Positions 1,183 through 43,280 of a stretch of 43,280 nucleotides of DNA are shown here, piece after piece. The notes below the pieces were generated by a model. The model saw only the letters and a list, made by a program, of their open reading frames with translations. It ran no database searches and was not told the origin of the DNA. Origin of the DNA: a virus; the IMG/VR virus record IMGVR_UViG_3300013001_000001, positions 1-43,280 of that record, one strand, 5' to 3'. Position 1 is the stretch's first letter. The number at the start of each line of letters is the position of its first letter. The translations under genes and the position numbers were made by a program.

Positions 1183-1225
1183 GCACGCCCCGTCATCGAG
1201 AGGGCAAGCCCTTGTTCTGGCAGGG

Positions 1226-1243
1226 AAAACGCACATGATCCGG
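1226..1243. repeat. Left arm of the 18-bp perfect inverted repeat AAAACGCACATGATCCGG (partner 3253..3270)
   Basis: Exact reverse complement found 9 nt after the int stop codon. The core ACGCACATGA recurs at 3348 and 3365. Confidence 0.9.
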
Positions 1244-1911: not shown

Positions 1912-2137
1912 GTCGTATCTGGGGTCGGAGATTACCGCCCGGTTACGGCACGTGGCAAGCATGGCGTGAAGAACCTGACGCATTGTTGCGCAGCGCCATG
2001 AGGGCGATTTTCACGTTCGGACAACCGATCTGGTGTCAATCCTGCGACGAACGCCCCGATGCCGGCGGCGGCCCGTCCGGCTATTTCCAGGGCAACTGGT
2101 AGAATTGGCACCAGGCCAGCACAGCCAGGTACCCGCC

Positions 2138-3244
2138 ATGATCTACCGCCGCAAGGACTCCAAATTCTGGTGGATGACGTACACCGATGCCTACGGCATC
2201 CCCGTCCGCCGCTCCACCCAAACCGAAGACCGCAAGGACGCCCGCGTGCTTTACCAGCAGGTGGTCGCCGAGGTCTGGCGGGAGAAGCACATGGGCGTCC
2301 AGGCGCCCCGCACCCTGGCCCAGGTTCTGCGGCCATACCTCTATCACGCCCGCCGGCATCAACGGAGCTTCGAGAGCACCCTCTACCGAGTGCAGACCCT
2401 GAAGCACTACTTTCCCGACGACACGGTGGTCAACCGGCTGACCGGCCAGGACATCCGCAGCTACAGCGCCAGGCGCCTGGAAGCGGGCGCGGCGCCGGCG
2501 ACGATCAACCGGGAGCTGTCTGCCCTTTCCGCGGCCATCAACTACTGCAACACCGAGCTGGACTGGCAGGTGCCGAACGTCATCACCGGCCGGCGCCTGC
2601 GCGAGCCGGACGGGCGCGTGCGCTGGCTGACCCGCGCCCAGGTCGAGGGCCTGTGCCGCAAGGCGGCCGAGCGCAAGACCGGCCAGCTCCTCGAGGACTT
2701 CATTCGGCTGGCGGTCCACACCGGCGGGCGCAAGAGCGAGCTGCTCGGCCTGGAGGTTAGCAGGATCGACCTGCAGAACAATCTGATCATCCTGGAGCAC
2801 ACCGACAACAAGAGCGACAAGCGCCGCTCGATCCCGCTGAACCACTCCGCCCAGGCCGCCATCCTTCGCCGGCTGGCCTACCGCGCCGCGAACTGCCCGG
2901 ACAGCCCCTGGTTGTTCTGCAAGCGCGACGGCGACCCGGTGAAGAGCATCCGAACGGCCTTCGAGAAGGCAGTCGACGAAGCCGGCATCCAGGACTTCAC
3001 CATCCACGACCTGCGCCACACCTGCGCGGCCTGGTTGGTGACCGCCGGCGTGCCGCTGATCGAGGTCCGCGACCTGCTCGGCCACGCCAGCATCGAGCAG
3101 ACGGAGATCTACGCGCACCTGGCCCCGTTCCGGGTTCGCCAGGCGGTCAGCCAGCTCGACCTCCTGCTGCCAGACAACGGTGAGCTGTGGCCCCCGAGGG
3201 TGATCAGCCTGGACGAAGCGCGGGGCAAAAAGCCTCACGCCTGA
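2138..3244 (+). CDS. int: Tyrosine recombinase / phage integrase, 368 aa
   Basis: C-terminal catalytic signature HDLRHTCAAWLVTAGVPLIEVRDLLGHASIEQTEIYAH. N-terminus MIYRRKDSKFWWMTY is typical of phage integrases. ATG 2138 chosen over the Arg-rich in-frame prefix starting at 2033. Confidence 0.92.
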   Translation: MIYRRKDSKFWWMTYTDAYGIPVRRSTQTEDRKDARVLYQQVVAEVWREKHMGVQAPRTLAQVLRPYLYHARRHQRSFESTLYRVQTLKHYFPDDTVVNRLTGQDIRSYSARRLEAGAAPATINRELSALSAAINYCNTELDWQVPNVITGRRLREPDGRVRWLTRAQVEGLCRKAAERKTGQLLEDFIRLAVHTGGRKSELLGLEVSRIDLQNNLIILEHTDNKSDKRRSIPLNHSAQAAILRRLAYRAANCPDSPWLFCKRDGDPVKSIRTAFEKAVDEAGIQDFTIHDLRHTCAAWLVTAGVPLIEVRDLLGHASIEQTEIYAHLAPFRVRQAVSQLDLLLPDNGELWPPRVISLDEARGKKPHA

Positions 3245-3252
3245 TTCACGTC

Positions 3253-3270
3253 CCGGATCATGTGCGTTTT
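3253..3270. repeat. Right arm of the 18-bp inverted repeat (CCGGATCATGTGCGTTTT)
   Basis: Exact reverse complement of 1226..1243. Confidence 0.9.
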
Positions 3271-3347
3271 GGCGTCCAGCGCCGACAGGCTGCGAGCGCC
3301 TCTGGCGCAGGGTATAGCGCCAGGCGCCGGCGGGAGGCGGAATTTAC

Positions 3348-3378
3348 ACGCACATGACACCCCATCATGTGCGTTTTT
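3348..3378 (+). terminator. Hairpin terminator downstream of int, built from the same motif
   Basis: ACGCACATGA (3348..3357), 7-nt loop, TCATGTGCGT (3365..3374), then TTTT. Confidence 0.65.
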
Positions 3379-3478
3379 GCGGATCCGCGCCGCCGCAGGG
3401 TTTCCGCCAGGTTGACCAGGGCGAACCGGGCGCTCAGCCACCCCTCCAGAATTTCACGGCAACAGCCGACCGATCGGA

Positions 3479-3589
3479 CCCGACGTGTGGATCGCCGGCG
3501 CACGATCATCCGCTAGCCCCGGAACATTGTTCCGGGCATGATGATCCCACCAGCCAGCCACGACGGCGAGGCGCCCCCGGAGCGACACG
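3479..3589 (+). promoter_or_regulatory. Copy A of the duplicated promoter/operator/5' leader
   Basis: Shares with 42546..42656 a 16-nt box CCCGACGTGTGGATCG and about 70 nt (roughly 90% identical) running to the ATG. Palindrome CCGGAACATTGTTCCGG (3519..3535) fills the 17-nt spacer between a weak -35 (TAGCCC) and CATGAT (3537..3542). GGAG RBS sits 7 nt before the ATG. Confidence 0.7.
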
Positions 3590-3838
3590 ATGAAAAAGCA
3601 AGCCACCTTCCCCACCCGCCAAGCCGCAAACGCGGCAGGCTTCCTGGCCCTGAGCCAGATCAAGCTCGAAGGCGAGCCGGTCACCTTCCGCAACGGCCAC
3701 CTGGTCACCAGCGACAGCCTGGTCCTGGCCACGGTCGCCACCGAGACCTTCAAGCTCGGCACCAACCTGGGCGCCCTTTTCCGCAAGGCGGACATCGACG
3801 CCGCCCAAGCCAGCCTCGACGAAGTCGCCGCCCTTTAA
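3590..3838 (+). CDS. Hypothetical 82-aa protein; candidate anti-defence (anti-CRISPR-like) gene by context
   Basis: Good RBS. First gene behind the operator-containing promoter and upstream of the Aca1-like gene. No family recognised. Confidence 0.6.
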   Translation: MKKQATFPTRQAANAAGFLALSQIKLEGEPVTFRNGHLVTSDSLVLATVATETFKLGTNLGALFRKADIDAAQASLDEVAAL

Positions 3839-3895: not shown

Positions 3896-4150
3896 ATGAC
3901 CGAATTCACCTTTAAGCACCAGCACGGCGACGAACAGACCGACCCGGAATACACCCTCCTGCAGGACGGCGTTCCTACCCGGATCAGCATCCAGGACAGC
4001 ACCAGCTACGGCGGCGGCTTCTCGGTCAACGTCGACCACCTCGACGACATCGACAATCCGCACATCGTCCACCTGCACCCTCACCTGAAGACGCTGGACC
4101 AGGCCAAAGAGATCGCCCTCGCCCACGCCCGCGCAGGCCTGCAGCCATGA
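3896..4150 (+). CDS. Hypothetical acidic, His-rich 84-aa protein; candidate anti-defence (anti-CRISPR-like) gene by context
   Basis: RBS CAGGAG. Stop overlaps the start of the Aca1-like gene (ATGA). No family recognised. Confidence 0.6.
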   Translation: MTEFTFKHQHGDEQTDPEYTLLQDGVPTRISIQDSTSYGGGFSVNVDHLDDIDNPHIVHLHPHLKTLDQAKEIALAHARAGLQP

Positions 4151-4689
4151 TGCCGAACGCGGAAACGCACTACCTGCCCGACCCGGAGTACCTCAAGCGG
4201 CTGATCGCGGACGCGGGCACCACCCCGCGTTTCGCCGCCGAGCGGATCGGGCTGACCGGGCGCGCCATGCGCTACTACCTCACGCCCCAGGTCGAGGGCG
4301 CCGATTACCGGGTGGCGCCCTACCCGGTCCAGTACACCCTCGAAACCCTGGCCTGCACCGAGCTATCCGCGCGCCATCTCGGCACGTACAAAAACCCCGA
4401 CGTGGTCCTGGAGCAGGTCACCAGCCTGGCCTACCTGCTGGAACAGCTGCACCTCCAGTACGCGACGCCCAGTGACGGCACCCCGGAGGGAATGATCAAG
4501 CGCGGACGCCGGATGCACGCGCTGGCCATGAGCGGGCGCCAGCTGATCAGCTACCTGCTCTGGCTGGGCTTCATGACCGGCGACGTTGGCCGCAACCTCG
4601 ATCAGCGCTTCTACCTGGCCCAAGGCCGAAAGGCAGACGATCCCGTCCACGCCGACGTCGCCGCCATCAAGGCGAAGTACAACCCCTGA
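4147..4689 (+). CDS. aca1: Aca1-like HTH regulator with an additional C-terminal domain of about 105 aa (180 aa total)
   Basis: LPDPEYLKRLIADAGTTPRFAAERIGLTGRAMRYYLTPQVEGADYRVAPYPVQYTLETLA aligns by eye, with about half the positions identical, to Aca1 of Pseudomonas phage JBD30 as I recall it. Confidence 0.6.
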   Translation: MMPNAETHYLPDPEYLKRLIADAGTTPRFAAERIGLTGRAMRYYLTPQVEGADYRVAPYPVQYTLETLACTELSARHLGTYKNPDVVLEQVTSLAYLLEQLHLQYATPSDGTPEGMIKRGRRMHALAMSGRQLISYLLWLGFMTGDVGRNLDQRFYLAQGRKADDPVHADVAAIKAKYNP

Positions 4690-11567: not shown

Positions 11568-11926
11568 CAGCCCTCCTCCTTTTTCTTCGGTATGGGCGCC
11601 TTGAACTGCAGCACCACCGGCGACTGATTCGCGTCGCGCATGGTGATGCTCTTCAGCGCCTTCACTTCCACCGACAGCACGAAGTCGTTGGAGTAGAGCC
11701 GAGAGACTTCCTCGTAGTAGGTGCGAGACGTCGACTTCGATCCGTCCTCATTGGTGATCTCGGTTTCAGTCAGCGGCGAGGCGATACCCGCGGTACCCGC
11801 AGCCTCTGGCTCGGTAAAGCTGCTTGTGCCCCGCTGCCCGGCCAGGCCGCCGCGGGCTTCAACGGTTGCCAGCGCCTGCCGGACGCGGGTCTGGATCAGC
11901 GCGTTTAGGTCATCGACCAGGCTCAT
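11567..11926 (-). CDS. Hypothetical tail-module protein, 119 aa
   Basis: Translationally coupled on both sides within the tail module. Confidence 0.6.
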   Translation of the reverse strand: MSLVDDLNALIQTRVRQALATVEARGGLAGQRGTSSFTEPEAAGTAGIASPLTETEITNEDGSKSTSRTYYEEVSRLYSNDFVLSVEVKALKSITMRDANQSPVVLQFKAPIPKKKEEG

Positions 11927-14304
11927 GGGATCGCCTCCAGGGTGAGCAGGTCGCCCCGGGTGGCCACCTCAAAGCGGGCCGACGCCGTGGGCTTCATTTC
12001 ATCGGTATAGGCCGCAGCGATATCCGGGGCAGTGACCTGGAAGCGCCGCGGGAAGGTGCCGCCACCGCTGGTGGTCATGGCGGCGGATTCTTCGGTAACC
12101 GTGGTGGTGGTGGTGTTGCCGTTGCCATCGGTCGAGGTGGTGGTGGTCGTTTCGTGCCCGAAAGAATCGACGTTCGAGGACGACGTCGAGCCCTTGGTAT
12201 TCGGGTCGCCGCCAGGCGCCGTGACCGAGGTGGAGTTGGTCCGGGTGCCATGCACCACGCTGGAGTAGTTGCCGGCATAGCCATCCACGTCATCGCGATA
12301 GGCAGAGCTGGGCGTGCCCTTCTCGGCCAGCTGCGTGGCGAGCGGCTTCGTGGAGCTGAACGGCGGCAGGCCGGTCACGTCCGGCTTCGCCGGCTGGGCA
12401 TAGGCGCTGGAGCGATCGCCGTAGCCCGCCGAGATGGCCACCGCCACCTTCACGGTATCGGCGCCGTTCTCCAGATCCCACTCGAAGTCCAGGGCGGCCA
12501 CCTTGCCCTGGGCAGTGCAGCCAGAGGCCTGCGCCCACACGGTGTGCGACAGATCCAGATCCGCCGCCGGCACCGGCGTGGTGAACAGCGCGCGCGTGCC
12601 GCGGTGGGTGCTGGCGATCTTGGTGGCGGCCAGCGCGTAGGCGGTGGCGAGCAGGTTCGCGCGCAGCGCCGTATCGTCCTTGTCCAGGATCTCGTCCCCG
12701 ACTTCATCGCGCCGGCCCCAGCCCGTCGACAGCACCGGCGGCAAGCCGCCCTTGGCGTAGGCGGAGGAATCCGCCGCTTGATCCATCGCCTCCCAGGCCG
12801 AGGTATCGAACTCGGATTCAGCCGAGTAGGTATCGCGCAGGATCTGCTCGCCCAGGGCGGCGATCGACGCCGAGTTCTGGACGGTGATGGTGTACGTCTC
12901 GGTGACCGACTGACCGATGCGGCGCACGACCTTGGAGCTCATGCTGAGCGCGAAAGGATCGTTGGTGTAGGGATTGATCCAGGCCCCCTGCGCACCCGGG
13001 CAGAGGTCAGGCAGCGGCGCCGACGCCGGCAGGGTCTGGAAGGTCAGCGCCTGCAGCGCCCAGCCGGTACCGGCCAGCGCCTCCTTGATCATCGAGACGG
13101 TCGGCAGATCCGAGGTCTTGAGCCGCCACTGGCAGAAGCCGCCTGCAGGATGGCCCCAGTTGTAGGAGGCCGAGCGCTGGCGCAGGCGGGTGTAGCGGTA
13201 TTCGACGGTAAGGACGACCTGGTTGTAGAGCGATTCGGTCGACATGATATCGATCGAGAAAGAGTCGTCCACGATGGTATCGGCGCCGAAGTACAGATCC
13301 GGCGTGGCCTTGGGCTGCCAGGGCACCAGGCGAACCTGGCCGTCCACGGTCATATCCAGGGCGGCGGCCACCGATTCCATGCGTTGCTGGGCATAGTCCC
13401 AATGGCTCTCGATGGCGCCAGAGATCGCCTCCTCCCACCGGCCCCCGATCAGGGTGGCGATCGCCGGGACCTCCATCGCCTCCAGGGTGGCCTTCAGGGT
13501 ATCGGCGCAGGTCAGGTGCAGGACGCCGGCATGCGGATCCCACTCGGGCGTGGCCACGACCCCGCCGAAGCGCTTGACCTCCTTCACCCGGCCATCCGCG
13601 TCCGTGTGCTGGCTGTAGATCGCCACAGAGCGGCCCAGCCAGGCGATCGGCAGCAGCGTCGACTCCAGGGGCACCAGGGACACCTCGGCGATGCGCGCAG
13701 CGCCCTCGGCCGCGGTGACGGTCACACGGCCCACCAGGCGCGCGGAGAGATCCACCTGACCGATCACCACGCGCAAGGACCAGCGCACGCTGGCGCCGAC
13801 CTGAACGGGCACGCCGGCGCCCGGGCTGGTGCCAGGCGCAGGGTTGGTCGGATCCACGCTGCCAGGGTTGCCCGGGTTGGTGGGCGTGCCGGGATTTGTG
13901 GGCGTTCCGGGATCGGTCGGCGTTCCAGGGTCGGTCGGCGTGCCGGGATCCGTAGGCGTGCCCGGATCCACCGGCGCGCCACCAGACAGGCTGCCGCCCA
14001 TGATGGGGCCGCTATTGATCGGGCCTCCATTGAGGACGGGCGAGCCGGTGCTGGTACCAGAGCCCGAACCTGAGCCGCCGCCCGAATTACCACCTGGTGG
14101 CGTTTGCTCAGCGGCCTCGGCGTAGCCAGGGGCATTGATCGGCCCGGCGTTGATCGGGCCGCCGTTGAGGACCGGCGAGCCGGTGCTGGTACCAGATCCC
14201 GAGCCCGAGCCGCTGCCGGCATTACCACCAGGTGGCGTTTGCTCGATCGCCTCGGCGTCGCCGGCCGCATTGATCGGCCTGGCGTTGATCGGGAAGCGAT
14301 TCAC
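11923..14304 (-). CDS. Large tail-tip / host-specificity-type protein, 793 aa, with a repetitive Gly/Pro-rich N-terminus (GTG start)
   Basis: Longest ORF after the tape measure. N-terminal 45-aa tandem repeats and (DPGTPT)n collagen-like hexapeptides. Confidence 0.75.
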   Translation of the reverse strand: MNRFPINARPINAAGDAEAIEQTPPGGNAGSGSGSGSGTSTGSPVLNGGPINAGPINAPGYAEAAEQTPPGGNSGGGSGSGSGTSTGSPVLNGGPINSGPIMGGSLSGGAPVDPGTPTDPGTPTDPGTPTDPGTPTNPGTPTNPGNPGSVDPTNPAPGTSPGAGVPVQVGASVRWSLRVVIGQVDLSARLVGRVTVTAAEGAARIAEVSLVPLESTLLPIAWLGRSVAIYSQHTDADGRVKEVKRFGGVVATPEWDPHAGVLHLTCADTLKATLEAMEVPAIATLIGGRWEEAISGAIESHWDYAQQRMESVAAALDMTVDGQVRLVPWQPKATPDLYFGADTIVDDSFSIDIMSTESLYNQVVLTVEYRYTRLRQRSASYNWGHPAGGFCQWRLKTSDLPTVSMIKEALAGTGWALQALTFQTLPASAPLPDLCPGAQGAWINPYTNDPFALSMSSKVVRRIGQSVTETYTITVQNSASIAALGEQILRDTYSAESEFDTSAWEAMDQAADSSAYAKGGLPPVLSTGWGRRDEVGDEILDKDDTALRANLLATAYALAATKIASTHRGTRALFTTPVPAADLDLSHTVWAQASGCTAQGKVAALDFEWDLENGADTVKVAVAISAGYGDRSSAYAQPAKPDVTGLPPFSSTKPLATQLAEKGTPSSAYRDDVDGYAGNYSSVVHGTRTNSTSVTAPGGDPNTKGSTSSSNVDSFGHETTTTTSTDGNGNTTTTTVTEESAAMTTSGGGTFPRRFQVTAPDIAAAYTDEMKPTASARFEVATRGDLLTLEAIP
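13860..13975. repeat. 18-bp tandem repeats encoding (D/N)PGTPT x5-6
   Basis: Units GGCGTGCCGGGATCNGTN read directly. Protein PVDPGTPTDPGTPTDPGTPTDPGTPTNPGTPTNPGNPG. Confidence 0.85.
13993..14292. repeat. 135-bp tandem duplication (about 2.2 copies) at the 5' end of the 793-aa gene
   Basis: TTGATCGGGCC recurs at 14015, 14150 and 14285. Protein PINxxPINAxGxAEAxEQTPPGGNxGxGSGSGSGTSTGSPVLNGG occurs twice. Confidence 0.85.
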
Positions 14305-33328: not shown

Positions 33329-34182
33329 CACAGCCCCCCTTTCGACCAGTCGTCATCGGCGCTGGCCGCGGGCCGCTTGCCCCGGCCAATGGGCACCACC
33401 GCATCGGTGCGGTGATCCTTGAGCACCCAGCGCACCAGGGCGGAGACGTGCTCCTTCTCGGTGAGCAAGGTGCCCCTGGGTTCGTGATGCAGGATGAACC
33501 TGCGGATGCGATCGGGCGTGAAGGCATCGGCCGGGACGCCGGCGAACTTGGCGTAGCTGCGCAGCAGGGTCTTGTCGGGTACCCACTCCAGGGACAGACG
33601 CACCGGGAGATCACCAGACGATTCGTCGGACGGCCCTGGCGAAGCACCCGATCCGGGTCTATCGCACGCGCCCGCGCCCGCAGTGTGTGAGGCTTTTACT
33701 TCTGTATCTGTATCTGGGGCGGTCGGTTGCGTTCGCTTGCGGTCGGATGCGGTCGGTTGCGGTCGCGGGCCATTCGAGGCCTTCCCCGCTTCCCGGGCTT
33801 CCCGTTCGCGCTGGCGTCTATCCCGCGACCTTTCGGGCGAACCGTCCTCTTTAACCGGCTGGCGCTTGGCCCACCCCAGGACCAGGAGCCCATCGAGCAG
33901 ACGCCCCTTCTGCATGGCCGCCAGGATCGCCTCCACCTGCTCGTCCGTAAGGTCCAGAAGGGATGCGCAGTCCTCCACCACGAAACCATGTGCTACCCCG
34001 CGTTCGGGTGCGTTCGGTTGCGGTCGGTTGCGGTCGCCTGCGGTCGAGTTCTTGGAAGCGCAGCACAATAGGTAGATGAAGACCGTCTGGACCTGGCAGA
34101 TAGAGCACCCGGAGTCACGCGCCACCGTGCGGAATTTGGGGTCGGACGGAAACTCATGCCAGAGACGAAACCAGTGGGACAT
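33328..34182 (-). CDS. Replication initiator (lambda-O-position) protein, 284 aa, containing iterons
   Basis: Lies directly upstream of the P-like gene. Two internal clusters of 10-bp repeats sit in a low-complexity linker. Confidence 0.65.
   Translation of the reverse strand: MSHWFRLWHEFPSDPKFRTVARDSGCSICQVQTVFIYLLCCASKNSTAGDRNRPQPNAPERGVAHGFVVEDCASLLDLTDEQVEAILAAMQKGRLLDGLLVLGWAKRQPVKEDGSPERSRDRRQREREAREAGKASNGPRPQPTASDRKRTQPTAPDTDTEVKASHTAGAGACDRPGSGASPGPSDESSGDLPVRLSLEWVPDKTLLRSYAKFAGVPADAFTPDRIRRFILHHEPRGTLLTEKEHVSALVRWVLKDHRTDAVVPIGRGKRPAASADDDWSKGGL
33719..33768. repeat. Iteron cluster 1: five 10-bp units (GCGGTCGGTT-like), candidate origin
   Basis: GC GGTCGGTT / GC GTTCGCTT / GC GGTCGGAT / GC GGTCGGTT / GC GGTCGCGG. 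Preceded by the AT-richer tract CTTTTACTTCTGTATCTGTATCTGG. Confidence 0.65.
34000..34049. repeat. Iteron cluster 2: five 10-bp units in the same orientation
   Basis: GCGTTCGGGT / GCGTTCGGTT / GCGGTCGGTT / GCGGTCGCCT / GCGGTCGAGT. Confidence 0.65.
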
Positions 34183-40553: not shown

Positions 40554-41405
40554 GTGGACCCCTTCCGCGTCACCGGCAACACCGCGGTCAGTTTCAGCGG
40601 CGGTCGCACCAGCGGGATGATGGCCCGCCTGGTCCAGCAGGCGAACCAGGCCGACGCCCCCATCAGGTACCTGTTCGCGAACACCGGCAAGGAGATGGAG
40701 CAGACGCTGCAGTTCGTCGATCGCTGCGCCCGCGAGTGGGGCCTGGACGTGACCTGGCTGGAGTACACCCGCGATGAGCCAGGCTTCAGGGTGGTCGACC
40801 TGGCCAGCGCCAGCCGCAACGGCGAACCCTTCGAGACGTTGATCCAGGCCCGCAAGTACCTGCCGAACCCGGTCACGCGCTTCTGCACGGTCGAGCTGAA
40901 GATCCGCACCATGCACCGCTACCTCAAGTCCCTCGGCTGGGCGGACAACGACGGCGAGTGGGACAGCATCGTCGGGATCCGCGCCGATGAGCACCGCCGG
41001 GTGGCCAAGATCCGCGCCAGGGGCACCAGCACCGAAACCCCACGCGAGCACATGCGCCTGCCGCTGGCCGATGCGGGCCTGACCGTGGCCGACGTCGGCG
41101 CCTTCTGGCGCGCCCAGCCCTTCGACCTGGAGCTGCCCAGCCACAACGGCAAGACCCTGCTGGGCAACTGCGACCTCTGCTTTTTGAAGGGGCGCCAGCA
41201 GGTGTACAGCATCATCGAGACAGACCGCCGGCGAGCGGACTGGTGGGCCGCCCAGGAGCAGGCGATCACCAAAGGGGGCGACGCCGCCCTGTTCCGCTTC
41301 GACCGGCCCAGCTACACGCAGATGCGCGAATACGCCGGGCGCCAGATTCAGCTGTTCGAGGACGACGACCTGGACGACAGCATCGACTGCTTCTGCGGCG
41401 ACTGA
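40554..41405 (+). CDS. PAPS-reductase/PP-loop ATP-pyrophosphatase family protein, 283 aa (GTG start)
   Basis: PP-loop SFSGGRTSGMM. CTVELKIRTM. C-terminal Cys clusters CDLCFLKG and DCFCGD. Confidence 0.75.
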   Translation: MDPFRVTGNTAVSFSGGRTSGMMARLVQQANQADAPIRYLFANTGKEMEQTLQFVDRCAREWGLDVTWLEYTRDEPGFRVVDLASASRNGEPFETLIQARKYLPNPVTRFCTVELKIRTMHRYLKSLGWADNDGEWDSIVGIRADEHRRVAKIRARGTSTETPREHMRLPLADAGLTVADVGAFWRAQPFDLELPSHNGKTLLGNCDLCFLKGRQQVYSIIETDRRRADWWAAQEQAITKGGDAALFRFDRPSYTQMREYAGRQIQLFEDDDLDDSIDCFCGD

Positions 41406-41454
41406 GTAACCCCAGCCACGGACGGCACCCCTACCCCTCATGGCATCAAAAATA

Positions 41455-41516
41455 TATACTGCGTAAGCATTGCGTATGCACGCAGGATTGATAATGTGTG
41501 CCCCGCGTACACACTA
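41455..41516 (+). promoter_or_regulatory. parA promoter/operator candidate with clustered TGCGTA-type repeats
   Basis: CTGCGTA, TGCGTA, inverted CACGCAG and CGCGTA within 50 bp. TTGATA (41488..41493)-N17-ACACTA. AT-rich tract upstream. Confidence 0.45.
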
Positions 41517-41538
41517 AAGGCGCCAGGAGGTGCCAGCC

Positions 41539-42213
41539 ATGATCACCCTCGTAGGGAACCCCAAGGGCGGAGTCGGCAAGTCGACTATCGCCGTGAACAT
41601 CGCCTCGGCCCGCGCCATGATCCCCGGCCGCCGGGTCCTCCTGGTCGACGGCGACGACCCCGAGCAGCGCAGCTCGGCCGACGCGATCCTCTTCCGCATG
41701 CAGGCCGAGGGCTTCCCCGGCATTGCCAGCGCCAACTGGTTCAACGGCGATGAGCTGCGCACCCAGGTCCAGCACCAGCGCGCCCTCTTCGACGACATCA
41801 TCATCGATGCCGGCGGCGACGACGGCGGCGCCCTCCGCGCCGGCATGATGATCTGCGACAAGATGGTCGTGCCCTACGCCCCGAAGGCCTTCGAGACCCG
41901 CGCCCTGCGCAAGCTGCAGAGCCTGATCGACCTTTGCAACGAAGCCCGCCGCGAGATGAAGCGCCAGCCCATCGAGGTCCTGGCCTTCCTCAACCGCGCC
42001 AAGCCGGGCGTGAACAACACCATCAACCTGCAGGGGCAGAGCGTCATCGAGCACTTCCCCCTGCTCAAGCTGATCGAGCCCAAGCTGGTCCACCGGGAGG
42101 CCTTCTCGGACGCCGCCGCGATGGGCATCAGCGTGTTCGAGCACAAGCCCCGCGACGCGAAAGCGTGCGACGAATTGAAGGCGCTCCTCGCCGCCATCTA
42201 CGGAGACCAATGA
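41539..42213 (+). CDS. parA: ParA/Soj-family partition ATPase, 224 aa
   Basis: Deviant Walker A GNPKGGVGKST and LLVDGDD. RBS AGGAGG 8 nt before ATG 41539. Confidence 0.85.
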   Translation: MITLVGNPKGGVGKSTIAVNIASARAMIPGRRVLLVDGDDPEQRSSADAILFRMQAEGFPGIASANWFNGDELRTQVQHQRALFDDIIIDAGGDDGGALRAGMMICDKMVVPYAPKAFETRALRKLQSLIDLCNEARREMKRQPIEVLAFLNRAKPGVNNTINLQGQSVIEHFPLLKLIEPKLVHREAFSDAAAMGISVFEHKPRDAKACDELKALLAAIYGDQ

Positions 42214-42214
42214 C

Positions 42215-42472
42215 ATGCCCAAGCCCAGCCTGCTCGCCCCCACCGCACCCGACGCCGAATCCGCATTCATCGCCGGCGGCAGATCCAGCCCGAAGCCCGC
42301 CGCCCAGGTCGAGGCCGCGCCCAAGGGCAAGCCCAAGATGAAGCCGGTCCCGCTGAAGCTCGAGGAAGACCTGATCGAGCGCATCGACGCGGCAGCCGCC
42401 AAGCGCATGCTCAGCCGCACCGCCTTTCTGCGCCAGGCTGCCCTGGCGCAGCTTGAAGACATGGGCATGTAA
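42215..42472 (+). CDS. Ribbon-helix-helix (ParG/CopG-like) partner protein, 85 aa
   Basis: Disordered basic N-terminus, then KPVPLKLEEDLIERIDAAAAKRMLSRTAFLRQAALAQL, an RHH fold pattern. Confidence 0.7.
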   Translation: MPKPSLLAPTAPDAESAFIAGGRSSPKPAAQVEAAPKGKPKMKPVPLKLEEDLIERIDAAAAKRMLSRTAFLRQAALAQLEDMGM

Positions 42473-42490
42473 AAAGGCATACCCAGGACA

Positions 42491-42530
42491 CCCCCGGTAC
42501 ATACCCAAGGCATACCGGGGGCATCCTTTT
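42491..42530 (+). terminator. Rho-independent terminator after the parA/RHH operon
   Basis: CCCCCGGTA (42491..42499), 13-nt loop, TACCGGGGG (42513..42521), then CATCCTTTT. Confidence 0.65.
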
Positions 42531-42545
42531 GGCTCACCGCTGGCA

Positions 42546-42656
42546 CCCGACGTGTGGATCGGGCAAGCGCGCTTATTCCGTGGATACGGAACATTGTTCC
42601 GGGCATGATGCTCCCACAGCCAGCCACAACGGCGAGGCGAAACCCGGAGCGACACC
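42546..42656 (+). promoter_or_regulatory. Copy B of the duplicated promoter/operator/5' leader
   Basis: Same 16-nt box CCCGACGTGTGGATCG. -35 TGGATA (42581..42586). 17-nt spacer containing CGGAACATTGTTCCG. -10 CATGAT (42604..42609). Leader about 90% identical to copy A up to the ATG. Confidence 0.7.
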
Positions 42657-42971
42657 ATGAGCCAGACCATCGAAATGACCTTCCCGGTTGAAGGCCTGCA
42701 GGACCAGAAAGCCACCTTCAGCATCCAGCCAGACGGCGCGGTCCTGGTCACCTTCCCCGGCCTCTTCATGAGCCTGCACGCGCCGGGCAGCGCCCTGCAA
42801 TTCACCACCCGCCGCACCAAAGGCGCCAGCGCCGAGTCGATGACGGTCGCCTACGCCCAGGACGAGAAGCTCACCAGCGGATGGGTGATCACCCTGAGCA
42901 AGGCAGCCGGCCAAGCCCTGCAGGACCGCCTCTGGAACCACCTGGCCACCCTGAACGAAGCCGCCGAATAG
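42657..42971 (+). CDS. Hypothetical 104-aa protein driven by the duplicated promoter; candidate anti-defence gene by context
   Basis: GGAG RBS within the conserved leader. A single-gene unit between two terminators. No family recognised. Confidence 0.6.
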   Translation: MSQTIEMTFPVEGLQDQKATFSIQPDGAVLVTFPGLFMSLHAPGSALQFTTRRTKGASAESMTVAYAQDEKLTSGWVITLSKAAGQALQDRLWNHLATLNEAAE

Positions 42972-42980
42972 GCAGCAAAG

Positions 42981-43015
42981 AGGCGCACCAGGTAGACACC
43001 GGGTGCGCCTTTTTT
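42981..43015. terminator. Terminator between the convergent 104-aa (+) and 64-aa (-) genes
   Basis: AGGCGCACC (42981..42989), 12-nt loop, GGTGCGCCT (43002..43010), then T6 on the plus strand. Confidence 0.8.
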
Positions 43016-43025
43016 ACATACCGCG

Positions 43026-43220
43026 TCAGTCCTCCCGCAGCACCAGGCGGAGCGTGCGCAGCGCCTCGGCCTGGCCGTCCTGCCAGTCGATCGCCGCGAC
43101 CGAGGCCTGCGGGTGCGGGCATTCATCGCCCAGGCCGATCAGCTCCGCGACGAAGCCGGCGCGCCACTCGGGCGTGTTCCAGCGGCCGATATCGAAGCAC
43201 AGCCCGGAATCAATCAGCAT
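43026..43220 (-). CDS. Hypothetical 64-aa protein, translationally coupled to the HTH gene across the circular junction
   Basis: Its ATG (43218..43220, equal to nt 61..63) overlaps the stop of 53..358 in ATGCTGATTGA. High GC3. Confidence 0.6.
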   Translation of the reverse strand: MLIDSGLCFDIGRWNTPEWRAGFVAELIGLGDECPHPQASVAAIDWQDGQAEALRTLRLVLRED

Positions 43221-43280
43221 GGGCCTGCGCCGGTACCGCGGCCAGATCCAGCTCGGCGCCGTGGTCGCGCATGGCCTGAA
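43158..43280. repeat. Right copy of the 123-bp terminal direct repeat
   Basis: Identical to nt 1..123. Confidence 0.95.

Follow-up and report, generated by a model that had tools for sequence, protein, structure and literature searches.

Two Aca1-type regulatory regions ahead of unrelated genes in one temperate phage genome

The viral genome IMGVR_UViG_3300013001_000001 of IMG/VR, analysed here over all of its 43,280 nucleotides (the window), carries two copies of one promoter, operator and leader cassette. Copy A heads an operon that encodes an 82-aa protein, an 84-aa protein and a 180-aa homologue of the anti-CRISPR-associated (Aca) repressor Aca1, and copy B precedes a lone gene for a 104-aa protein, with which it forms a compact unit that we call module B. 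We consider it probable, on comparative grounds, that these are two Aca1-type regulatory regions through which the Aca1-like protein acts as a repressor, in cis on its own operon and in trans on module B. One repressor over two candidate anti-defence loci is a rare but already described arrangement; what is unusual here is an aca-less monocistronic module past the integrase and a putative phage attachment site (attP), an Aca1 with a C-terminal extension, and fast-evolving ORFan cargo.

The two regulatory regions and their probable regulator

An exact pairwise alignment of the two loci (coordinates of all parts in Table 1) finds the similarity to be as high as the first-pass annotation had read it by eye. 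The box common to both is identical at 16/16 positions (3479–3494 against 42546–42561), and the match extends through the preceding 10 nt (23/26 over 3469–3494 against 42536–42561). The spacer that follows is variable, as had been described: its 25 nt are 54% identical, against a background of 52%. Then comes the segment that had been put at about 70 nt and roughly 90% identity up to the ATG; 3520–3589 and 42587–42656 agree in 64/71 alignment columns (90.1%), the copies share an exact run of 24 nt, and the palindrome, the CATGAT hexamer and the GGAG listed by the first-pass annotation are all present in both. For the background, 2000 random 70-nt pairs were drawn from the window; their mean identity is 51.6% (standard deviation 3.5) and their maximum 64%. 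The coding sequences downstream are unrelated, again as claimed, since their first 90 nt are 56% identical, equal to background. The palindrome GGAACATTGTTCC has two sites only in the window, even with 2 mismatches allowed, where 0.37 matches would be expected by chance. That the two regions resemble each other through chance or low complexity is vanishingly improbable: the high G+C content of the genome is the sole point in favour of this explanation, which is refuted by the 24-nt exact run, by the 90% identity over 70 nt against the background and its maximum, by palindrome shuffling controls and by the occurrence of both copies in a second phage.

Both copies follow the same promoter plan. 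GGAAC-ATT-GTTCC cores at 3521–3533 and 42588–42600 lie inside the 17-nt spacer between the candidate −35 and −10 hexamers; the −35 assignment of copy B is based on its 17-nt spacing to CATGAT and on its register with the TTGACG of related cassettes, and the −10 hexamers of those cassettes lie 9–10 nt upstream of the hairpin, where CATGAT aligns. From the operator to the hairpin the distance is 31–32 nt, and the hairpins end 17–18 nt before the ATG. The structure GCC-A-GCC-loop-GGC-GA-GGC is the minimum-free-energy fold in 4/4 leaders folded, two from the window and two from a sister phage, L056, described below. When 38 distinct cassettes from outside the window were made into an nhmmer profile, it matched 42577–42661 (E 1e-9) and 3516–3594 (E 6.6e-6) and nothing else in the window; no Rfam 15 family matches the window at the gathering threshold. 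By layout and profile match, both copies are canonical acr–aca1 regulatory regions (acr, anti-CRISPR gene). The aca1 gene lies downstream in the same operon for copy A; copy B is followed by the 104-aa gene and then a terminator. With no aca1 behind it, copy B is therefore a family-type regulatory region that stands outside an acr–aca operon.

The regulator that could serve both regions is readily recognised. Residues 3–70 of the 180-aa protein match the Aca1 structures PDB 7vjn, 7c0g and 7fa3 (E about 1e-13, best 9e-14), and tblastn finds it ~51% identical to the Aca1 of 127 Pseudomonas phages over residues 1–69 only. Of the residues that contact the bases, R44, R47, Y48 and R59 are conserved and V45 is replaced by Ala. 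In the crystal structure of Aca1 from phage JBD30, whose operator (inverted repeat 2, IR2) is GGCAC-AAT-GTGCC, R47 and R44 recognise the two G residues, V45 and Y48 the A, and R59 the last C:G pair; the C at the third position makes a single hydrogen bond, to Y48, and is one of two cytosines that, according to the JBD30 structural paper, may add less to specific recognition. The window operator half-site has the same 5-3-5 geometry as IR2 and differs at this third position only (C to A). We considered whether the change of Val45 to Ala explains the GGAAC specificity and rejected it, since both residues occur with GGAAC operators. Within the window there are two profile matches and two palindromes, ahead of separate transcription units, and one Aca1 homologue. 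As far as computation tests it, the earlier proposal of one Aca1-like regulator for two loci stands, on the Aca1 homology, the conserved contact residues, the shared operator and the lack of a third site.

Behind the helix-turn-helix (HTH) domain, the regulator carries a ~105-aa C-terminal extension (4372–4689) that is found in this phage lineage only; it has no homologue outside the lineage, and PHROGs and Pfam are uninformative for it. Between the window and L056 the regulator is 87.8% identical over the whole 180 aa, with a ratio of nonsynonymous to synonymous substitution rates (dN/dS) of 0.12 for the HTH part (1–75) and 0.5 for the extension (76–180). In another relative, the 191-aa protein P0005, the extension is N-terminal instead and 120 aa long. 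Such extended Aca1 homologues may be Acr–Aca fusions or carriers of sensor domains.

The leader also corresponds to a published RNA motif. Feussner et al. (Nucleic Acids Res 2026, PMC13551039, September 2026) reported that Aca1 binds leader RNA in vitro, with an apparent KD of ~61 nM in electrophoretic mobility shift assays and a physiological effect that is unknown. Their motif is a ~20-nt inverted repeat directly after the transcription start site that ends ~20 nt before the start codon, and it consists of a 3-bp lower stem, at most 2 unpaired bases and a 3-bp upper stem (PMC13551039). The conserved leader of the window holds the exact 20-nt hairpin published as Aca1-binding in vitro (PMC13551039), which lends substance to the hint in the first-pass annotation that the leader has a role at the RNA level. 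By the same correspondence, transcription of both units would start directly ahead of the hairpin.

The cassette can be followed into many other phages. The leader segment GCCAGCCACNACGGCGAGGC, which holds the exact 20-mer, occurs in 46 IMG/VR contigs; Aca1 is encoded 180–1180 nt downstream of it in 43 of these, and the other three run out of sequence. Common to all 46 is a layout of an optional upstream inverted repeat, a −35, an operator (GGCAC, GGAAC or related), a −10, CAT, the 20-mer and an AAGGAG-like-N7-ATG, followed by differing first genes. Some of these first genes resemble known acr genes, MKFIKYLST being presumably AcrIF1 and MSSTISDRI AcrIF3. GGAAC-N3-GTTCC is the commonest operator among the 43 Aca1 loci (~22, lying 27–32 nt upstream of the hairpin), and an independent metagenome scan for a GGAAC operator plus the hairpin skeleton returned 19 loci, with Aca1 downstream in 19/19. 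Across the family the hairpin stems are nearly invariant, and loop and bulge vary (24 distinct variants). Conservation of acr promoters with swapped cargo has long been known for Pseudomonas phages.

Two cassettes in one contig were found in only one other case among ~116 loci with profile matches, and an aca-less second cassette is rare in this sample. That other contig (L022/L091, IMGVR_UViG_3300027365_000021) has cassette matches at L091 5268–5355 and 5683–5743; the second is a partial match that spans the operator to the leader and has no −35, and it stands 415 nt further downstream, flanked on both sides by genes of a single acr–aca1 operon. Closer searches gave little: blastn of both loci against 50,697 sequenced phages returned no match, the exact 17-nt palindrome occurs in IMG/VR in two unrelated chance contexts, and a metagenome scan with a 24-nt lineage-specific pattern found nothing. 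With the Aca1 leader hairpin as a probe, acr loci can be found very specifically, as all 43 viral and 19 metagenome loci with enough downstream sequence have Aca1; such a scan also flags the rare aca-less cargo modules that guilt-by-association with aca genes would miss.

Upstream of the promoter, CCGACGAACGG-like boxes (at most 2 mismatches) accompany 26/68 distinct acr–aca1 cassettes, against 3.4% of control windows; the loci include L012, L014, L019, L032, L036, L044, L079, L084 and L108. Relative to the hairpin, forward boxes are found at −51/−52 or −59 to −63 and reverse ones at −55, −65 and −75. The window copies read CCGACGtgtGG at −72/−73 (3480–3490 and 42547–42557), one more ~11-nt step away. 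On this spacing, the window box is probably a divergent form of an upstream element that the family shares and that keeps to one face of the helix. No relevant description of the box sequence turned up in a literature search.

Module B, its cargo and the circular map

The first-pass annotation had placed copy B elsewhere in the genome from copy A; it is actually a neighbouring locus. The ends of the window repeat directly (1–123 equals 43158–43280, 100% identical), so the molecule is a 43,157-bp circle or a terminally redundant genome, and on the circular map the copies are separated by 4.09 kb across the junction, not by 39 kb. The interval holds the 104-aa gene, a row of small minus-strand genes (four or more, for which PHROGs and Pfam gave nothing informative), the tyrosine integrase and a 234-bp non-coding stretch. 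Just downstream of the integrase gene, and thus between it and copy A, is an inverted repeat that is likely the attP core. Additional sites for the integrase are likely as well, since ATCATGTGCGTTTT recurs at 3257–3274 and 1222–1239 (minus strand), against a chance expectation of 0.05; the region is conserved in L056 and in a third relative, L140. Because an attP adjoining the integrase would fall between the copies, these would probably be found near opposite ends of the integrated prophage in a lysogen. A scan of genome contigs with the operator plus −10 gave seven chance matches in unrelated taxa only, so no integrated prophage was found that would fix attL and attR, and ARAGORN found no tRNA or attB-like fragment. 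The possibility that copies A and B are themselves attL/attR-like prophage ends was rejected: it would leave the integrase outside the element, and the repeats have diverged and look like promoters.

The two relatives show how the locus varies. L056/L057 (44.3 kb) is a syntenic sister phage, located via the sole close homologue of the 104-aa protein, and it carries both cassettes; the two phages have each kept the A-type and the B-type spacer, so that the duplication is older than the split of the window and L056. L140 was located via the Aca1-fusion cluster. In it, cassette A is joined directly to the 84-aa gene, in the ribosome-binding site (RBS) region, without the 82-aa gene, and unrelated DNA takes the place of module B, the homology of the three phages stopping at ~42530 and resuming at ~43025. 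The L056 slot is expanded by an extra 137-aa gene. Flanking the slot are the terminator of a ribbon-helix-helix (RHH) gene upstream, where a parA–RHH pair ends in a hairpin and then a U-rich tract, and a minus-strand 64-aa gene downstream; the terminator behind the 104-aa gene was missed by the terminator rule of a consensus scan because its loop is too long. The idea that the cassette acts as a portable expression platform is borne out in two ways: the cassette search in related phages that the first-pass annotation had proposed turned up dozens of different first genes behind the same promoter and leader, and module B is present in two phages of the lineage and absent from the third. Its presence and absence mark module B as a portable moron that comes and goes as a single piece. 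The RHH protein was considered as its regulator and set aside, because it pairs with ParA and a terminator separates its gene from copy B.

Several neighbouring features deserve mention. Just upstream of module B (40554–42530) are a PAPS-reductase (DndC/SspD-like) gene and the ParA plus 85-aa RHH pair. Three CATACC repeats lie inside the terminator-like hairpin after the RHH gene (42473–42530), which may serve as a partition site in addition to ending transcription. Two minus-strand genes of 101 aa and 64 aa (43026–43220 and 53–358) come immediately after module B and extend across the junction; the stop codon of one overlaps the start codon of the other (ATGCTGA). The first has a match to PHROG 20491, of unknown function, and the arrangement resembles a toxin–antitoxin pair, without family support.

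The 104-aa protein belongs to a family of 8 members, with one close homologue (62% identity) and six distant ones (23–25%), 99–106 aa long. Its AlphaFold2 model is a seven-stranded sandwich with a C-terminal helix (predicted local distance difference test score, pLDDT, 83), and the fold matches of this model to PH/PTB domains are weak; there is no Pfam, PHROG or PDB sequence match. Large repeat proteins that match the 104-aa profile (TPR, Calx-beta and Ig-like arrays) were discarded as spurious, their scores being summed over many repeats. Some of the distant relatives are on Pseudomonas Rep_3 plasmids (L059–L064), there always 50–70 nt after a RelB-ParE/YafQ pair. The designation of this gene as an orphan therefore holds in so far as it stands alone with no adjacent aca, and fails in so far as it has these plasmid relatives. 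In L140, which is without the 104-aa gene, a RelB–YafQ pair lies among the late genes (L140 12553–13249).

The two proteins encoded ahead of Aca1 in operon A are more isolated still. Neither the 82-aa nor the 84-aa protein has a homologue in the PDB, in sequenced phages or in IMG/VR outside the lineage, and searching IMG/VR with protein patterns of the 104-, 84- and 82-aa proteins brought up no relatives. The window copy of the 84-aa protein is 71–75% identical to those of L056 and L140. Both genes precede aca1, the position typical of acr genes; the 104-aa gene has an Aca1-type promoter and no adjacent aca.

Rates of change were taken from one pairwise comparison, the window against L056. The surroundings are well conserved: ParA (protein identity 98.7%, dN/dS 0), RHH (96.5%, 0.15), the integrase (95.1%, 0.17), the 82-aa protein (97.6%, 0.22), a 183-aa Rz-like protein (97.3%, 0.17) and the endolysin (95.3%, 0.11). 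The 104-aa (61.5%, 1.09) and 84-aa (71.4%, 1.15) proteins stand out. Between the phages, cassette B has 87% identity (91.5% in its core), and the 104-aa open reading frame has 76% at the nucleotide and 62% at the protein level; that the cassette is more conserved than its reading frame suggests an arms-race gene under a constrained regulatory region. We infer from these patterns that the cargo may have an anti-defence role. The three small ORFan genes are anti-defence candidates, two of them with dN/dS ~1.1 amid a neighbourhood that is 93–99% conserved.

Proposed trans control and its alternatives

The reading that we favour can be put as a sequence of steps. Each cassette would form a weak sigma-70 promoter with a poor −35, a 17-nt spacer filled by GGAAC-ATT-GTTCC and the −10 CATGAT, followed by a short hairpin leader and GGAG-N7-ATG. 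Copy A would drive the operon for the 82-aa, 84-aa and Aca1-like 180-aa proteins, and copy B the monocistronic 104-aa gene, with terminators on both sides. On entry of the DNA both promoters would fire; the Aca1-like protein would then build up from operon A, and its dimer would bind the operator in both promoters, so that operon A is autorepressed in cis and module B repressed in trans. The Aca1-like protein may also bind the hairpin on both mRNAs. The cargo of module B would most likely be a fast-evolving host-interaction or anti-defence protein.

This arrangement has clear parallels. As in the JBD30 acrIF1–aca1 and Mu-like Pseudomonas phage acr–aca1 promoters, the operator lies between −35 and −10, a hairpin follows the presumed transcription start site, and the RBS is followed by N7-ATG. 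The regulator family, its contact residues and the 5-3-5 operator are shared with JBD30, and the 20-nt hairpin is the same bar one loop base in copy A. Unlike JBD30, the window has a GGAAC half-site in place of GGCAC and no recognisable upstream inverted repeat (IR1), an element present in ~40% of acr–aca1 promoters (Feussner et al., PMC13551039); its CCCGACG box lies one helical turn further upstream, its −35 is weak, and three extra G stand between operator and −10. The regulator is 180 aa long with its C-terminal extension, against 79 aa, and the phage is integrase-carrying, lambdoid-like and temperate, not Mu-like, with a second cassette that has no aca gene.

Control of further operons by Aca proteins has been predicted, and shown experimentally for Aca14, Aca11 and Aca13; for Aca1 itself, trans regulation has been predicted only (PMC13551039). 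Like these multi-operon systems, the window has one Aca family, two full sets of DNA and RNA motifs in distinct units and uncharacterised small cargo, with the Aca protein encoded in one of the two transcription units only. Unlike the published examples, which concern adjacent or neighbouring operons, the units in the window are 4.1 kb apart, with the integrase and the attP-like site between them. Module B also has the marks of a phage moron, namely its own promoter, one gene, an intrinsic terminator and a slot whose content differs among relatives. It departs from generic morons in that its promoter is a copy of the phage's own Aca1-controlled region, which ties it to an existing repressor circuit.

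Several observations weigh against this reading or its parts. Both −35 hexamers are so weak that a sigma-70 consensus scan recognised neither copy as a promoter. At the RNA level, binding of Aca1 to the leader gave no translational effect (PMC13551039), and the 24 hairpin variants contain one compensatory change, so that the RNA structure leans mainly on published work. The C-terminal extension of the regulator is unusual, and the AlphaFold2 model of the 180-aa protein is unusable (pLDDT 44). As to the cargo, the 82-, 84- and 104-aa proteins gave no sequence match to any characterised Acr, nor did the model of the 104-aa protein give a fold match to one, the plasmid relatives of the 104-aa protein adjoin toxin–antitoxin genes rather than aca genes, and the dN/dS values come from a single pairwise comparison.

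Three other explanations have to be set beside it, and they bear on different parts of the evidence. Copy B could be a duplicated moron promoter, constitutive or otherwise regulated, that keeps its operator and hairpin as inherited baggage without control by the Aca1-like protein. Module B has no aca gene and the external cassettes with enough downstream sequence all have their own aca1 (43/43 viral, 19/19 metagenome), which makes trans control atypical, and the atypical extension of the regulator also favours an uncontrolled copy B. We nevertheless regard this as improbable, given that, between phages, copy B has kept its operator and hairpin as well as copy A has, with its spacer and cargo diverging, that the family profile matches copy B more strongly (E 1e-9) than copy A (E 6.6e-6), and that an identical operator alongside its cognate repressor in one cell would be bound unless this were prevented. 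The cassettes could also be mainly recombination substrates for swapping cargo between phages or loci, with regulation secondary. Cargo does vary behind the same cassette in dozens of phages, module B and the 82-aa gene are polymorphic for presence and absence, and the junction of leader and 84-aa gene in L140 falls in the RBS region; yet the A/B identity within the genome is no higher than between genomes and thus gives no sign of gene conversion, and the cassette does not contain the boundaries of module B, which fall at the flanking terminator and the stop codon of the neighbouring gene. Position-specific conservation of operator, −10 and stems, with free loop and bulge, is predicted by function and not by plain homology. 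As a replacement for regulation, recombination has in our estimate a slim chance of being right, and it is compatible with the favoured explanation rather than an alternative to it.

The remaining alternative concerns the cargo. The 104-aa protein could be a maintenance or stability accessory, of partition or toxin–antitoxin type, with early self-limiting expression from an Aca1-type promoter. Its gene comes directly after the ParA–RHH partition pair, its plasmid relatives have the fixed place behind a toxin–antitoxin pair noted above, and it is without similarity to known Acrs. Opposed to this are its dN/dS of 1.09, with a dN ten times that of its neighbours, which is unusual for a housekeeping maintenance factor; its dispensability, as it is absent from L140; its insulation from parA–RHH by a terminator; and its wiring to the regulatory system that drives anti-CRISPR genes elsewhere. 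On balance we hold a maintenance role to be unlikely, if worth keeping in mind.

Returning to trans control by the Aca1-like protein, a more far-reaching version can be formulated, in which the extended Aca1 runs a two-promoter regulon near opposite prophage ends, the 104-aa PH-like and the 84-aa proteins are new anti-CRISPR or anti-defence inhibitors, and the CCGACG box (−51, −62, −73) is an undescribed third promoter element bound by a further factor. In this full form it is a tentative proposal that we would sooner doubt than adopt. The window offers a natural test case for trans regulation by Aca1, with one repressor gene, two identical operators and leaders and a relative without the second module. 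For specialists, it is a test case and a candidate source of inhibitors, not a surprise.

Feature coordinates and other parts of the genome

Table 1. Positions of the cassette parts, associated genes and flanking elements in the window
Feature	Position	Strand	Basis or remark
Copy B upstream box; 16-nt core CCCGACGTGTGGATCG at 42546–42561	42536–42561	+	Identity to copy A; kept in sister phage L056
Copy B locus-specific spacer; weak candidate −35 TGGATA at 42581–42586	42562–42586	+	Spacing and register
Copy B Aca1-type operator CGGAACATTGTTCCG	42587–42601	+	Core GGAAC-ATT-GTTCC
Copy B candidate −10 CATGAT	42604–42609	+	Alignment with TATGAT, TATAAT and TATAGT of related cassettes
Copy B hairpin of the 5' untranslated region, GCC-A-GCC-ACAAC-GGC-GA-GGC	42619–42638	+	Aca1 RNA motif, exact 20-mer
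Copy B RBS GGAG, 7 nt before ATG	42646–42649	+	Homologous to AAGGAG-N7-ATG of related leaders
104-aa cargo gene	42657–42971	+	Predicted PH/PTB-like beta-sandwich with C-terminal helix; G+C at third codon positions 0.89
Intrinsic terminator after 104-aa gene	42977–43014	+	−25.7 kcal/mol, z −6.5, then U6
Module B (cassette, gene, terminator; 494 bp, variable slot)	42531–43024	+	Homology breaks among three phages
Copy A cassette	3469–3589	+	Alignment, palindrome, folding, profile match
Copy A box	3479–3494	+	
Copy A candidate −35 TAGCCC	3514–3519	+	
Copy A operator CCGGAACATTGTTCCGG	3519–3535	+	
Copy A −10 CATGAT	3537–3542	+	
Copy A hairpin	3553–3572	+	
Copy A RBS	3579–3582	+	
82-aa gene, first of operon A, candidate Acr	3590–3838	+	Absent from L140
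84-aa gene, directly upstream of aca1, candidate Acr	3896–4150	+	In all three phages
180-aa regulator gene	4147–4689	+	Residues 1–70 Aca1 HTH domain; 76–180 lineage-specific helical extension (predicted)
Tyrosine integrase gene	2033–3244	+	Pfam Phage_integrase E 3.8e-34; PHROG 1 E 1.8e-70
attP-like core: ACGCACATGA, 7-nt spacer CACCCCA, TCATGTGCGT	3348–3374		Perfect 10-bp inverted repeat read from sequence

Two repetitive regions elsewhere in the window were noted in passing. Clusters of four 10-nt tandem repeats each (consensus approximately GCGGTCGGTT) lie at 33709–33776 and 33990–34057, 281 nt apart, inside a minus-strand 284-aa gene whose L056 counterpart adjoins a lambda P-like gene; they look like origin iterons within a replication initiator gene. 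Five 18-nt periodic repeats and a 135-nt tandem duplication (83% identity) occupy 13853–14270 inside a 793-aa minus-strand gene (11923–14304), and these are probably a repetitive tail fibre or collagen-like segment.

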